In this document: positions 15,168-63,012 of the stretch, one piece after another
Position numbering within the stretch: position 1 is the stretch's first letter
How the letters are laid out: every line of letters begins with the position of its first letter
NCBI GenBank assembly: GCA_951406725.2
Contig: OX597817.1
Span: forward strand, 22,816,001-22,880,000
Direction: 5' to 3'
From: Octopus vulgaris
Taxonomy: Eukaryota
Length of the DNA stretch: 64,000 bases
Notes under the pieces: model-generated
What the model saw: the letters and a program-made list of their open reading frames with translations, nothing else
Database searches by the model: none
What the model was told of the DNA's origin: nothing
Program-made: the position numbers and the translations under genes

Positions 15168-16310
15168 TTTTTGCTAGAATGGAACTTATATATTAATTCA
15201 ATCTATACTCTTACAAACGCTACACCTTTAAAAAGAAATGGACTTGTTTGATTGGCCCTTTAGAAAAAACGGTCAATCTTCGAGCGATAAACAAAAAGGT
15301 CAAAAATATATGTATATATATATAAAAACTTATAAAAATTATAAAATCCGAGGAAAAAAACCGAGGAAAAAACCTATTGCCGTTAATGAAGACAGTGCAA
15401 ATTAATGCATAGAAATTAAACCTGTTATAAATACTGCAATACATATTTATATTAAAATCTACATATATATATCAACATACACAAAAGGATGCGCGTAAAC
15501 GCCATACATACATATACAGACGTATGAATATGAATCTAAATATACACATAAAAGCATGTGTACATATATTCACGCAAACCGTCTCGCACGCAAGCTAAAA
15601 TTCATCTATGTAGCAATTCTCATATACTGAGCAAGGAGGGGGAACGAAAGAAAGGGAAAGAGAGAAAAAGGAACGAAGGAGGGGTGGGGAAAAAACTTGT
15701 AACGATGTTATTGGCATCTATAGAGACCAGTATACATACACAAGTTTGAATGGATACATATACATACCGTCGTGTATATGTGCGCTTAAGCACAAGCATA
15801 CTTTCACTTACACATACACAGATACGCATGCTTACAAATACATATGCTTTGCTATACACATACTTATATAAACATTCTAATTTTGACAACATTGCTTTTT
15901 TTTAAAAAAAACATTGCTTTTAAAAAATGGGTGCATTAATAAAAATATATACGAAAGACATATAAAATAAAATATAACATCCTATTTTGGGTCATTTATA
16001 AATAATCAAGGTAATATAAATAATCAAGGTAATCCTATGCAATACAATAACATGAAAACAAAGTTTGTAGGTTTTTCCTAATATATATGTAGAAACATAA
16101 GACTTTGCTATACGGATTAATATCCGCGTAGCTTGGAAACAGAATCAAAATCCGTCGTAGCGCTCAAGAGTCAAAATCAAAATCAAAAATCAAAAGTACA
16201 AAATATATACTCTATCCATATGGTATATTTATATTCGACATTTTAAATTTAGCCGCGTGCCTACATAAGTTCATTAACTCACTTCTTTGATTCAAAGAAT
16301 TATTGTCTTT

Positions 16311-16547
16311 GAACTAAAAGAAAAGGAAGCCCCACCTTTCAACGTGACATGGAGCATTCTGGACTGGGCGGCACCATACAGGCATGGAGCTTACAAATAT
16401 AATTTCAAGTGCAGACTTTGCCTATTAGAAAAAATGCACATCTTATTCAAAGACAATAATTCTTTGAATCAAAGAAGTGAGTTAATGAACTTATGTAGGC
16501 ACGCGGCTAAATTTAAAATGTCGAATATAAATATACCATATGGATAG
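16311..16547 (+). pseudogene. C-terminal fragment of a Penelope-like GIY-YIG endonuclease
   Basis: ELKEK..FNVTWSIL..AAPY..KCRLCLLEK..LNQRSELMNLCRH; the CxLCxxEK and RxExxxxCRH motifs are recalled as typical of Hydra-clade PLEs. Confidence 0.85.
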
Positions 16548-17798: not shown

Positions 17799-18759
17799 CG
17801 TTACATTGAAAAGGGCTTGTAAATAACAGGATCAGAAATTAAGTTTAAGGCACAAAATATGTAACACTCATAGGAGGCTGATTTTGCAGACTAATTTCAA
17901 GAGGAAAATGTCAACAACAAAGATTTATACGCGCAAAATAACAAGCATAAATGAAATAGTGTTGGATATTGTGTTATATTCTATTAAATATATAATGGTC
18001 TCATTATTTTATGCCACTTCAAATTAAAGAACTTAAGCTGATTATCATTTGAGTTTCAGTGTGGCCAAACTTATAAATAGTTCCTGACACTAGAACCGTA
18101 TCTTATTACCATATTCATTAACGCACGCTCACACACACGTACGCGCACACACACACGCACACACACAAACAAACAAACATACACAAAAACACTTAGGTTT
18201 TCGTTGACCTGTCTGCCTGTCTATACTATTCTCTCTCCTCATCATATCTCTTTGTCGCTCTTTTATTTTTATAGATGTATAGAAATAGCACATAGAAATG
18301 TCCTCCAGTTTGAACAGGCAGACACCGCCATCTCTGGATTGGGCTAACCGTCTCGCTGACTTTGGAACCATATCCGTTGGTTTATAATACAACAAATATT
18401 TTTATTATGGTTTTTTTCGATCAAATGGTTAATAACTCCAATTTATTTCTTTTCTTTTCTTTACTTTTTCCATTTTACTCATCCTTTCACACTTTGCATC
18501 AACTTCCTTCTTGTTCTTTTCTCTTTTGTTTTTTTCTCGTGATTTTTCACCGACCAGCGATCTTGATTTTCTAGCAGAACAGACCATGTGCTTAGAGCCC
18601 GGAGATTGCTTGGCAGCACAAGGCCTGTCATAAACACTTGCTCAGGCACCAAGAATCTATTATTAGCTCGTATGTTTATACTGTATACATTAAATAATTT
18701 GTGTCCCTCACAGGATGCAATACTTTTAGTTGATGTTGCCTCAACGCAACAGTAAACTA

Positions 18760-18819
<60 letters not shown>

Positions 18820-19222
18820 CTCTTTGTAGAAATATATTAATCCGGTGGAGAAGTACACTTTAAGCTGTAGAGCAGTTAATAGTATAGTGGAGTAGGCCGG
18901 TTTGTGGGGTTACCCTGGCTTTCTCGCTCATAAGGGGTTTAGCCTTACAGTGTTTTCTTTACCCCTTTAAAATAAGTGTAAAACCCTCAGTGATTATCTG
19001 CTTTGCCATTGTCCATCGATCTTCATTTGCAGCCATCTTGCGGTCACTAAAGCACCACGGAACATGAAGGTTTAAACGAAGGTAACCGAGTGTCTCTCTA
19101 CTGCCTTTGATATTGTTTTCTGGCTCTGTTGCTGCCATGCGGACACCAAAAAAGGCCAGCAGGAATTTTCTAAAATGCAGGATGTTCCCTGGCACGAGCG
19201 AGTCTTTAAGGATCCTCGTGCG

Positions 19223-20728
19223 TTAGGCAATGCATAACTTACACCGTTTCGTCCCGTTGATGTAGAGGCCTAGGATCTCGAGTATTTTCCATACGATCGC
19301 GTATGGAATCTCTTTATCTTGTAATTGCCGAATATGGCTGGTCAGCGATGTCTGAAGGACATCTGAAGAGACTCTGAAAGAGGACATATGATTGGAAATA
19401 TGCTGTTTAAGAGAAGTTTCAGAGCACTCCACGTACTTCTGGGGGGGCGTGATATCGTTGCACCTGTTGCGTCTCTCGTTGCACCTGTTGCGTCTCTCGT
19501 TGCGCCTGTTGCGTCTCTCGTTGCGCCTGTTTCTTCTCGCGTTGCGCCAGTTGCTTCTCTCGTTGCACCTGTTGCGTCTCTCGTTGCACCTGTTGCGTCT
19601 CTCGTTGCGCCTGTTGCGTCTCTCGTTGCACCTGTTTCTTCTCGCGTTGCGCCAGTTGCTTCTCTCGTTGCACCTGTTGCGTCTCTCGTTGCGCCTGTTG
19701 CTTCTCTCGTTGCACCTGTTGCAGTTGTAGGTGCTGTTGTTGATGCGTTTATCGCTGCTGTTGCTGTTGCCGTTACCACTGCGCCTGTTGCTGCTGTCAC
19801 TGCACATGTTGCTGTTGTAGGTGCTTCTGCTATTGGTGCTACTCTTGCTGCACTTGCTGCACTTGCTGCTACCGTTGCCACTGATACCGCTGGTGGTGTT
19901 GTCGCTGCTGGGGCTGGTGCTGGTGCTGGTGTTGGTGCTGGTCATATTCTCGTTCCTGCACCTTTTGCCTGTGTTGCAGTCGCTGCTGTTGCTGCCATTG
20001 CTGCTAGCGTTACTATGGCTGCTACTGTTGTTGTTTTTGTTATCGTCGCAGCTGGTGGCGCTGCCGCCGGTGTTGCTGTTGTTGTTGTTGATGGAGTCGG
20101 GGCAGCTGGTGATGTTGCTGGTGTTGGTGACGGTGGAGGATGTGGTAGTGGCGGCGGTAGTGCTCTCGCCGCTGTCACTTCTGCTTCTGTTGTCGTTACA
20201 GCCAGCGATGGAACTGCATGCTTTGCCTCTGCTACTATCACTGTGGCCAATAGGCCTGGCATCGGAGACGTCGGGGAAGCTATTGGCAAGGCTGGTGGTG
20301 GTGGTGGTGATGTCGATGCTGTTGGCGATGCTGCTACCATCCATTGTGGCGATGATGGCTGTGCTACTGGCTCTGTTGATGGAACCGGACCTGTTGCTTC
20401 CGCTACAGATACTACAGTGGCTAATAGTTCTGGCATCGTGAACGTCGAGGAAGCTAATTGGCAAGCTGGTCATGGTGGTAATGTCGCTGGTTTTGGTGAT
20501 GCCGCTGCTGTGGTTGTTAGCGATGGCAGTGGCGTCAATGATGGCTGTGTTACTGGCTCTGTTCTCATATCTACGGTCGTTATTGTTTCTGCCGGTGTTA
20601 AAGGCATGTCGTGTTCGACCTTCGGCTTGATATACGACTCCTTTGGTTTCGTAGCTTACACCTACCGGGCAACTTGCTTCCGATACTGCGTGAATAACCA
20701 GCCGCTTCCTGTGGCCAAGGAGTGCTAA
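19223..20728 (-). pseudogene. GIY-YIG endonuclease frame with about 400 aa low-complexity insert
   Basis: One stop-free frame: CPVGVSYETKGVVYQAE (GVVY 20641-20630) ... KYVECSETSLKQHISNHMSSF..TSL..WKIL..Y..KRCKLCIA*. The track ORF 19223-20473 is part of it. Confidence 0.8.
19458..19723. repeat. 21-bp minisatellite, about 12.5 units, with a 105-bp higher-order period
   Basis: Unit gttgc(a/g)cc(t/a)gtt(gc/tc)(g/t)tctc(t/g)c; variant order A A B C D A A B C' D A B'. Confidence 0.95.
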
Positions 20729-21832
20729 CTAGGATGCTCTTAATTTTGGGGGCGCAGCTAAACGATACTGTAACATTGTGCCTGTTGAATAAGGAAAAGT
20801 TTACATACGTAGGAAGGGAGTAGGAAGGGCAAACCAAATTCTGGAGTGCTTTCTTCTGCGGCTGTTGGGTTCCGGTATGTAGGAGATGCGGTGCCTAAAT
20901 TCGCTGGCAGCTAGGGCCTCATTATAGAACGGGGCTGCTGCGTCTAAGGCTTCTTGGCTAGAGGAAAGGTTCGAAGTCCTCTTGCTGACGCATTTTACCA
21001 GGTTCTTGAATACTATGGGTGGGTGACAGGAGGTGCCAGGTTATCGCAAAATGGCAGCGCGGGAGAAGATCGATGGACAATGGAAAAGGGAGATAATCAC
21101 ACAGGATTTTACACTTAATAACGAGGCTTTCCCCACTCCATATGTTAAAGAGGACTCAGACCAGTAATGTTTGGGTTCTGAAGATATGCCGGAAGATATG
21201 AGCGAGAAATTTGGTGTAACCCCATAAACCGGCCTACTGCATTATTTTATATACTTATATACATACATATATATATACGTACGTGCACACACATTCACAT
21301 ACACAAACGTATGTGTGTGTGTGTGTGTATGCAGTGGCGGCGTGGACAGGTTGTTAGCTTGCCCGATCGCAAATGGGCCCCTTTAGACATTAGGTTCATA
21401 TACGGAAGCCCATGGAATACTTTGCTTTCAAAGAAAATATCTGAAATCTTAGAGTGAGGATAAAAATGAAAAAAAAACAACAAATAAAGCAATTAAGCAA
21501 AGCACTTGGTCAAAGAATTTCCTAGAGAATTCATAGAATCCAAAATATATGATACAGTAGACAGCTAGTCAGTGGTGATAAAGTGTAACTAAATTTACAT
21601 ACATATTAATGCATATATACATATACATTCACACGCACACATAAATATGTATATATATATATATATAGGCGCACACAGACATAGCCGCAAGACGACTGTC
21701 TTTTGTTCGTTATCCTAAGGGACTTTCGCTAGCATTCGATTGATCCTAGCACTTATAAGCCTCCGGACAACAAGCAATAAATCCAGAAGCAGATTATAAT
21801 TGACGTATGCTTGTATGTGTGAGAGAGTGTGT

Positions 21833-40858: not shown

Positions 40859-41023
40859 AATACAGGTTTGAAATATTGGTTTCAAATTTTGACACAAGGC
40901 CAGTAATTTAGGAGCATTATGGAGGAATTACATTATAGTAATTATTCCAACAATGCAAGGGTCACATTTTTTACTTTATGCATTATACGGTCTAGAGTGT
41001 TTAACAATGGATCATTTCATATT

Positions 41024-41260
41024 TCAGTCCACTAAATTCCAACTTAAATCGTGTGTTAAACTAGGCAAAGAAGTACAATTATCCCTAGCCACTGACCGAA
41101 AGTTAAAATAGTGATTATGTAATCTCACCTTGAGATTTGTACAGCACGCGCTAACATAGACAGACCTAGATCGATCAGTACATACCATGCACTTGTTCAG
41201 AATGTTCATGATCAAACATTTATTATCCAAGATGCTGGGTATTTGAAGTTGCAGTGTTTC
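41024..41260 (-). pseudogene. Degenerate Penelope-like GIY-YIG endonuclease with normal motif spacing
   Basis: DNKCLIMNILNKCMV..VYVSACCTNLKVRLHNH.FNF...TSL; a linker-like region may extend to about 41900. Confidence 0.65.
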
Positions 41261-43380: not shown

Positions 43381-44008
43381 TCTTCACTCTTAAATATAAT
43401 ACTTTGACATGCCACCCACTCTCCCTTTCTCGCTACAGATGATGGAAGACGTAGCGAACGCGCTGTTTTCTGATTGGCTGAATATTCTGAAAATTATCAA
43501 ACTTTGAACACCTGTAACACTTTCGCAAAATCTTTCTGGAATAACTGAATAACAAATTTGGATTCAGCGTCACAAATTACATCTATATGATACATGAAAA
43601 AGATCTTTTAAATATTTCGACATGCAGTGACTCAAACCACAATGCTTCAGAAGTTCTGTACGATACGCTGTCTACAATAGATTTAACGAGTTTGTGATAT
43701 GGATGGAAAGAGTTATTATGAAGATCTAAGGTAGCGTTTTAGTAGAAGTTGGTGGTTTTAAGGTTAAGCTTAACACACACACTAAGACCACGTTCTTAAA
43801 GAAAGATTTAATTCGTTTTCAATTCGTTTTCATTACCACTAGAATTGGCTATTACTATAACCCAAGACGGTACACAGAGCGTCATACCTATAGAGACCAC
43901 CAGAGAGAAGTGGGGTGGTAAATTCCCAGAGACAGAAAAGTACATAACATATCATGTGGTCAGTAATTTGGGCTGGGTCGCTCGACATCATCAAGATGTC
44001 GAAATTAA

Positions 44009-50249: not shown

Positions 50250-50550
50250 ATACTTCCATGCTTCCCATTGATATAATAGAATATTATCCCATAAGACACA
50301 CTCTCGAATTCTACATCTAGCAAGATTTTGGAACTCAAGAAAAGTGGGATCGAATTTAGTCTTCAGTGGGATATAACACAGAAAGCGCAGCCTTATAGAT
50401 ATAGTCGATACGGCTGTGAACTGTTCTCTATGGAAACCTATTAGATTTTTAAGTATAGGGACACAAGAACAACCTGATCAATGATAGATTAGACCTAAGG
50501 TATCATGCGTGCATAGCTTCACCTGTACATTTAAGTATTTTCGAGATTAG
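50250..50550 (+). pseudogene. Degenerate Penelope-like GIY-YIG C-terminus
   Basis: Manual translation ILELKKSGIEFSLQWDITQKAQPYRYSRYGCELFSME, then frameshifted LINDRLD..CVH; parallels 16311-16547. Confidence 0.7.
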
Positions 50551-61993: not shown

Positions 61994-62409
61994 GGCGGCG
62001 AGCTAGCAGAAACGTTAGCACGCCGGGCAAAATGCGTAGCCGTATTTCGTCTGTCGTTACGTTCCGAGTTCAAATTCCGTCGAGGTCGACTTTGCCTTTC
62101 ATCCTCTCGGGGTCGATAAATAAAGTATCAGTTACGCACTGGGGTCGATGTAATCGATTTAATCCGTTTGTCTGTCTTTGTTTGTCCCCTCTATGTTTAG
62201 CCCCATGTGGGTAGTAAAGAAATAGGTATTTCGTCTGCTGTACGTTCTGAGTTCAAATTCCGCCGAGGTCGATTTGCCTTTCATCCTTTCGGGGTCGATA
62301 AATTAAGTACCAATTGCATACAGTGGTCGATGTAATCGACTTAATCCGTTTGTTTGTCCTTGTTTGTCCCCTCTGTGTTTAGCCCCTTGTGGGTAGTAAA
62401 GAAATAGGT
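61994..62409 (+). mobile_element. SINE family B followed by a tandem 5'-truncated copy (period about 184 bp)
   Basis: gtatttcgtctg at 62042 and 62226; both units end in gggtagtaaagaaataggta. Confidence 0.9.
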
Positions 62410-63012
62410 ACGAAACCTAACTTTGATATACTTCTCGATATATACCTTTTATCTATCTCATTTTTCTTTCTATTGTAGGTGCAGGTGCTGGTGTTCTTTT
62501 GTGTTGTTTTATATTAGTGATTAGGCTGAGGATTTAATTTAATAATTAATAATTGTTAACGTAATTTGTTTCATTCAATGTTCGCCGTTCACTTTTGCCT
62601 TGTTAACTGAAAACGCTTTCCTGTTTTATTATCCGAAAGCTAACATGTTCTAGCTATAAAAAGACAGGAATGTATAAACCTCTCAGTTTATAGCTCTAAG
62701 CAGATTCATAAGGACCTAAGTGACATGCATATACGTTGGTCTCTTGCTTTTTTCAGTCACTGGACTTTAGCCATCCTGGAATAACGCCTTCATATCTTTT
62801 AGTGCGTGAAACTGACCTTTGAATTTCGTCAAGTATTTATATATCCATTGTGTTCGGATTTAAATGGAAACTCACGTTGACGGGGACGCGTGGAACTTAA
62901 CTAAATGCACCGACGCCATTTTGTTTCTGCCATACAGGTAGGTATACACAAACACACACGTACACTCTTATGTGTTTTAATAAATGTTTATCCACATTTT
63001 TATGCAGATGTC

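Follow-up and report, generated by a model that had tools for sequence, protein, structure and literature searches.

On the minus strand of the window, a 64,000-nucleotide stretch of Octopus vulgaris contig OX597817.1, lies a 5′-truncated and decayed copy of a Penelope-like retrotransposon that, judged by its motifs and relatives, is a member of the Hydra clade (Table 1). Other copies of the family reach further 5′, into the reverse transcriptase (RT); this one stops in the RT thumb, whose remnant is 58% identical to an intact sister ORF (tblastn, E 2e-14 over 20873-21031). The inverted copy of its own 3′ end that precedes the element is a layout described for Penelope-like elements (PMC8557442). 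Neither the window ORF nor that of the intact sister had a Pfam match at threshold.

Two motifs about 10–20 residues apart define the GIY-YIG nucleases and are the usual means of finding them. The initial annotation had placed the two motif tyrosines of this copy 399 codons apart in one stop-free frame, and so they are: minus-strand frame 19223-20728 is free of stops over 501 codons, and 1197 nt separate the tyrosines at 20632 (GVVYQAE) and 19435 (KYVECSE). Column-for-column alignment with the intact 717-aa sister, in which the tyrosines are 18 codons apart, and with relatives outside the family bears out its proposal that GVVYQAE is a true GIY half. The insert (18% Asn, 19% Ser, 10% Thr, 14% Arg) is Ser/Asn/Thr-rich and ends in a 7-aa Arg/Cys repeat, as annotated, encoded by a 21-bp unit in 12.8 copies; the alternative Pro/Thr/Ala frame does contain two stops.

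Table 1. Features of the element copy and its flanks, in window coordinates
Feature	Position	Strand	Basis or remark
5′-truncated, decayed Hydra-clade Penelope-like retrotransposon copy (clade by motifs)	18818..21033	-	Match to family copies extends from 21033 as far as the (TA)n run
RT thumb remnant	20801..21031	-	tblastn with intact sister ORF; open frame down to 20801
Decayed CxCx5C linker, 1-nt insertion near 20675	20651..20696	-	Comparison with family copies
GIY half-motif GVVYQAE, hairpin strand 1	20621..20641	-	Alignment with relatives; strand 30-39 in model
In-frame Asn/Ser/Thr-rich loop	19436..20620	-	685 nt align to subfamily core, 86% identity
Old tandem duplication in loop, units of 171 and 186 nt, 70% alike	20207..20563	-	Also in three other loci
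Copy-specific 21-bp (7-codon) minisatellite, the Arg/Cys repeat	19455..19722	-	TRF, 12.8 copies
YIG half, arginine helix, linker strand, CxxC; ends at stop on catalytic Glu codon	19223..19435	-	
Nuclease remainder past the stop, conserved-Asn segment deleted	19139..19222	-	tblastn: 11-residue gap
3′ pseudo-LTR	18866..19047	-	Aligns inversely with 21040..21263
Inverted copy of element 3′ end (inverted pseudo-LTR), degenerate hammerhead-core-like motif	21040..21263	+	
(TA)30 flank adjoining element	18758..18817	.	Reported Hydra-clade target type

This copy is dead. As the annotation had also recognized, linker and nuclease are decayed: one of the four linker cysteines is left and three are changed, and in the nuclease core the Gly is changed, the catalytic Arg codon encodes His, a stop has replaced the catalytic Glu codon and the segment with the conserved Asn is lost to a deletion. 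The 1-nt insertion severs the nuclease frame from the RT thumb, so that the first ∼18 residues of the 501-codon ORF are off-frame. With 42 nonsynonymous to 22 synonymous differences from its subfamily, a neutral ratio (p 1.0), the copy has decayed neutrally.

The window also holds four decayed Hydra-type ORF fragments, three from the nuclease and one from the RT, at 16305-16514 and 50316-50453 on the plus strand and at 40955-41158 and 43691-43789 on the minus strand. The remnant at ∼41000-41200, cited initially as showing normal motif spacing, is a degenerate relative with a spacing of ∼13 (by eye), and its first Tyr is lost. A 182-bp unit in two tandem copies (62042-62410) resembles SINE-like sequence found inside several loops.

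Clade placement and sampling of the family

The motifs RWK, DKT and CxCx5C without CCHH define the Hydra clade, for which (TA)n is the reported target type (PMC8557442, section 11). In our family, CxCx5C precedes the GIY motif in all nine subfamily majorities and CCHH is lacking, with CxxC ahead of the Glu and CxH behind the Asn. RWK is found in L063 and L071 and DKT in L063 and L070, copies with long-loop-type junctions; the window copy is truncated short of this region. The sister element, in the same genome, has RWK, DKT and CxCx5C, and no CCHH. RT, thumb, linker and nuclease follow in order in five long-loop copies (L061, L062, L067, L073 and L077), from which, decayed as they are, we infer that long-loop elements encoded RT together with a C-terminal GIY-YIG domain in a single ORF. 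A subfamily with a 27-codon loop (B) matches Hydra-1_Obim across linker and loop, as printed in the supplementary alignment of PMC8557442, and its hammerhead is canonical, the same as in Hydra-1_Obim. Clade placement rests on these motifs and on this match.

A pattern search found a degenerate hammerhead core in subfamily H, to which the window copy belongs, and in the window's inverted end, and had no match in subfamilies F and G or the 3′ region of locus L079; Rfam gave no hammerhead, only microsatellite-driven matches below threshold. A (TA)5 or longer run lies within 550 nt downstream of 38 of 70 copies, compared to 32% of random windows, which is a weak test. A first reading of the element as belonging to the Neptune or Nematis clade was dropped on the criteria of PMC8557442 (section 11). 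Those clades, like Penelope/Poseidon, have CCHH with two Cys between GIY and YIG, and no such Cys pair occurs in our short-loop members or subfamily majorities; moreover, their linker is CX2-5CxxC and ours CxCx5C.

Two groups of Hydra-type elements with intact ORFs were noted. L079 (G000:C1:57215500-57220500) and its many matches form a young, near-identical family, with 18-codon loops and a 717-aa ORF still intact, whose copies often lie in tandem or as inverted pairs and which has likely been active recently. P0205, P0215 and P0222 are intact Hydra-type ORFs of 813-857 aa with short GIY-YIG spacing and ∼100-125 Pro/Thr/Asn/Ser-rich residues directly past the RT thumb, a separate low-complexity expansion at another site.

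Searching the octopus's own genome (2.8 Gb) gathered 210 loci, in which profile anchors marked 143 distinct GIY halves, 60 without a YIG half in reach and 83 with one; removal of one double-counted anchor left 82 copies with both halves. The loop measures 207–1365 nt in 70 of these and 53–83 nt in the other 12, and no loop among the 82 falls between 83 and 207 nt. This 70:12 ratio is not a genome proportion, as the search queries were long-loop copies, which the sampling favored. The collection that the initial annotation had called for thus showed the insert in other copies, so it is not a one-off, and its core is common to copies on many contigs. Exact 18-nt junction patterns had 7 and 10 matches, 5 and 5 of them already among the matches listed, from which the subfamilies would seem to number tens to low hundreds of copies. 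Twenty copies fetched via YIG-half matches all lack the GIY half, which fits 5′ truncation inside the loop. All long-loop copies found are old, and no intact long-loop ORF turned up: of the 150 matches listed, none has an open frame longer than the 501 aa of the window copy. The loop core is also carried by a predicted protein of Octopus bimaculoides (P0002), the only long-loop relative found in a large protein set, on weak evidence since such searches need shared words.

Recurrent short interspersed elements are later insertions in the AAC-rich loops of L014, L021, L067, L077, L110, L141, L156 and L167, and also in the loops of L062, L130 and L175, which suggests that they favor AAC-rich triplet runs. 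Another O. bimaculoides protein, P0154, starts with ∼170 residues of the family RT joined to a host protein with a PH domain; this is probably an artefact of gene modelling.

Loop length and reading frame

We built a maximum-likelihood tree of 81 copies (L149 left out) from 740 flank columns with the loop excluded, rooted on the 18-codon sister. That root is supported because relatives outside the family have short Tyr-Tyr spacing: 10–33 in the 79 of 150 relatives that could be parsed (71 unparsed), and 9–17 in 58 of 75 full-length relatives (17 unparsed). Many of the unparsed proteins are fragments. Long-loop copies form one clade (support 100), the 27-codon subfamily is its sister (99), and the 18-codon elements lie outside; several inner nodes are weak. 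Loop lengths ascend this tree as a ladder of 18, 27, ∼135–155, ∼200 and ∼210–285 codons. The long loop is family-wide, in frame at both ends, and longer along a tree made without it. An outside relative, P0124, has an Asn/Ser/Thr-rich hairpin loop of 30 residues, possibly an independent start of the same lengthening process.

Subfamily analyses used 78 of the 82 copies, leaving out the outgroup and three near-duplicates. The median triplet-periodic core measures 436 nt in subfamily C, 404 in DE, 447 in F, 586 in G, 638 in H, 842 in I1 and 916 in I2; among copies above 700 nt, many have been lengthened in part by later insertions. The conserved frame is the Asn/Ser/Thr frame that the annotation had singled out, which coincides with the nuclease frame in 64 of 70 copies at the left junction and in 58 of 70 at the right one. 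With three of three aligners, the majority loops of F (140–144 codons), G (199–201) and I1 (285) keep the frame and contain no stop, as does that of DE with two of three; those of H, C and I2 are 1–2 nt off frame. We read the offsets in H and C as alignment noise, because phase switches are scattered in both and both include switch-free copies (3 of 13 in H). The window loop has no phase switch along its length.

The initial annotation had asked whether insert length varies only in multiples of three. Net length is such a multiple in 30 of 70 copies, and in 12 of the 17 up to 450 nt, which is no surprise in old copies that took 6–9 frameshifts per kb in the loop, compared to 7–10 in coding flanks of F, G and H. 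Three I1 copies took 2 per kb. The loop frameshifts are copy-specific. Between majority loops, indels of 3n are in weak excess (35/50 versus 293/520, p 0.07), and triplet slippage favors 3n without selection.

The full 399 codons hold for the window copy and not for its lineage, whose shared loops span ∼135–285 codons, the rest being repeat growth peculiar to the copy. The part of the window loop that aligns to the H core does so with 15 gaps, of which 14 are multiples of three. The ∼170-nt duplication is common to the window copy, L009, L014 and L021, two units each, so one active sub-lineage carried ∼250–270 codons; periodic cores in this sub-lineage measure 808 and 742 nt. In a blastn search of the minisatellite against the 210 loci, all 11 matches listed were to the window's own locus. 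What this copy gained by itself is ∼250 nt of minisatellite and some smaller triplet additions, and about one third of the 399 codons, the Arg/Cys repeat included, is copy-specific.

Selection and predicted structure

Differences between subfamily majorities arose while the elements were active, and comparison of each copy with its own majority provides a neutral baseline. Over the nuclease C-half (106 codons from YIG on), dN/dS is 0.04–0.16 in all 11 measurable pairs of long-loop consensuses, against a baseline of 0.52–0.59 (Fisher p 5e-11 for F-G, 2e-5 for G-H and 4e-8 for F-H). The C-half was under purifying selection between long-loop subfamilies. The loop, with dN/dS of 0.7–0.9, no different from its own baseline, looks neutral in sequence. 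Selection is not significant in the 25-codon GIY half, where 28 differences are nonsynonymous and 24 synonymous (p 0.10) and F and G differ by 1 amino-acid change and 6 synonymous codons, or in the thumb/linker flank (dN/dS ∼0.3, p 0.16). The two flanks, left and right, are unequal in synonymous divergence, a hint of recombination between subfamilies.

No subfamily majority has lost the linker cysteines or the first Tyr. In F, G, H, I1 and I2 the majority retains Tyr, Gly, Arg and Glu; in F, G, H and I2 it has the complete catalytic set (Tyr, Arg, Glu, Asn), which the window copy lacks. Exceptions concern the catalytic Arg codon of subfamily C (of 11 scored copies, 5 have His and 4 Arg) and the Glu codon of H, with Glu in 16, Lys in 4 and other residues in 3 of 23 scored copies (three sister-family rows removed). 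The four Lys loci (L002, L009, L014 and L019) have a neighboring variant in common and cluster, weakly supported, in the tree, and P0002 also has Lys here, so that a nuclease-dead offshoot is possible. Lys may instead be parallel decay, because the Glu codon sits in a CpG, where transitions run at about twice background (17–18% compared to 8–10% elsewhere).

We modelled the hairpin against known GIY-YIG structures, as had been suggested initially, using a natural copy, L027, with an 89-codon loop, one stop read as X and a 63-sequence alignment. The model (mean pLDDT 76.5) has two strands predicted with confidence, 37-47 and 126-137, and between them a loop of low confidence. Its best match is I-TevI (1ln0; Z 8.6, rmsd 2.3, 88/92 residues, model range 37-219), with five GIY-YIG-type folds in the top six, and it also matches T4 EndoII and UvrC; Foldseek against PDB gave nothing for it at E 0.001. 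The core elements of the fold are the hairpin, an arginine helix, a linker strand and a glutamate helix (PMC3045582). For the window ORF, strands are modelled at 30-39 (block pLDDT 85) and 430-436, with low pLDDT in the loop outside the repeat; the Arg/Cys repeat is modelled as one long helix, which swamped the fold search so that only coiled coils were returned. Closure of the hairpin around a long loop is compatible with these models, which are not independent proof of it because both alignments include unsplit relatives that favor closure.

Origin and meaning of the long loop

We consider it probable that the window holds a dead, 5′-truncated Hydra-clade copy from a lineage whose hairpin loop was lengthened in frame, with the nuclease likely still working. 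The initial suggestion that a Penelope-like lineage tolerates a huge disordered loop in its nuclease core gains support from the family-wide in-frame insert, and the lengthened loop is predicted to be a disordered spacer hanging off the hairpin. It may have grown from an Asn/Ser/Thr-rich seed resembling Hydra-1_Obim's loop of 27 residues, as AAC/AGC/ACC triplets slipped and segments were duplicated in tandem and in frame while the elements were active. With the YIG half downstream in the same ORF, frameshifts would have been selected against, whereas the sequence of the loop would have escaped selection. After insertion, the minisatellite and small triplet gains would have brought the window copy to 399 codons. 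We think it unlikely that selection acted on the length and composition of a 200–285-residue loop as a disordered module, which might for instance serve as a tether, form condensates or act as a decoy against silencing by the host.

A less probable course, still deserving weight, is that the first big jump, from 27 to ∼90–150 codons, captured outside triplet-rich DNA by a template jump, the loop being functionally neutral. The empty interval between 83 and 207 nt would fit this, and the mechanism has been proposed for rotifer Penelope inserts (PMC3846280). Yet the 27-residue loop is similar at either end to the termini of long loops (by eye), the F, G, H and I1 loops align with each other, and one later step is a visible tandem duplication.

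We also doubt that the long loop disabled the nuclease, leaving the elements to use a short-loop Hydra nuclease in trans or to keep the C-half for DNA or RNA binding. Short-loop relatives are present in the same genome, the GIY half shows no significant selection, dS is discordant between the two flanks, and Lys replaces Glu in a group within H and in P0002. Set against this, the linker cysteines and first Tyr persist in every majority, the GIY half shows the 1-to-6 pattern between F and G, majorities in F, G, H and I retain the catalytic residues, and the Glu codon of H lies in a CpG, so that its Lys may be decay.

That the insert is an intron retained through retrotransposition, the other origin offered initially, is very improbable. 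Such retention by Penelope-like elements has been published (PMC8557442), and the loop is near-neutral and variable in length. However, no GT-AG pair in the F, G, H or I1 majority loops leaves an in-frame hairpin of 10–30 codons; within wider bounds F and G have none, H would be left with 4–5 or 44–50 codons and I1 with 37. Nothing would keep an intron in frame and free of stops, and by eye the sense strand is A/C-rich with the pyrimidine tract missing at the 3′ end.

Hardly credible is a split confined to the window copy (by a nested element, repeat growth or assembly error) or a host-recruited gene: the minisatellite and triplet gains are indeed copy-specific and later insertions partly lengthened many copies above 700 nt, but a one-off is refuted for the loop core, shared across many contigs and with P0002, and recruitment of the 501-codon ORF is rejected on its neutral divergence from the subfamily and lost catalytic residues.

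Hydra-1_Obim (2507 bp, 27-residue loop; Craig et al. 2021, PMC8557442) is like the long-loop family in its C-terminal GIY-YIG domain, CxCx5C linker, lack of CCHH, CxxC/CxH, RWK and DKT, and in the (TA)n flank of the window copy, while its sister clade, the lineage of the window copy, has loops of ∼90–285 codons. No mention of long loops was found in the passages of PMC8557442 and of its supplement covered here, and the full supplement may catalogue them. The parsed GIY-YIG relatives have Tyr-Tyr spacings of 9–33, compared to ∼90–285 in the active long-loop elements. Core insertions are known in GIY-YIG restriction enzymes (PMC1564403), and a 2026 octopus repeat annotation describes a Penelope expansion without loop detail in the passages covered (PMC13282606). 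The nearest parallel comes from Penelope ORFs of the rotifer Adineta vaga, with Asn-rich in-frame inserts of 460–554 aa between RT and thumb and a further 1.5-kb Asn-rich insert between RT and nuclease, which arose at pre-existing short (AAY)n runs and for which template jumps onto triplet repeats were proposed (PMC3846280). Asn content is similar, ∼21–25% in the octopus loops and 25–30% in those inserts. The rotifer inserts lie between domains in very low-copy families, whereas the octopus insert separates the two strands of the catalytic hairpin, lengthens from one subfamily to the next and is accompanied by a measure of selection on the nuclease. Full-text literature searches, not extending to Repbase, Dfam and subscription journals, came upon no insert within the Penelope GIY-YIG hairpin, and the scan's index contains no similar stretch. 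Already known, then, are the Hydra clade and the Asn-rich insert type; new, and less expected, is the place in the catalytic hairpin, along with a traceable growth series and evidence of selection on the downstream half of the nuclease.

Long-loop elements may be missed or annotated as low-complexity proteins, of which P0002 is an example. The unexplained Asn-rich Penelope inserts of the rotifer type are here extended to a second phylum and into a catalytic core, in a family that shows the growth history of the loop and not just its end points. The natural series of 18, 27, ∼140, ∼200 and ∼285 codons makes loop tolerance directly testable. If the reading we favor is true, the tip of a catalytic hairpin can carry 10–15 times its normal length, with selection on the downstream half of the nuclease not visibly relaxed.
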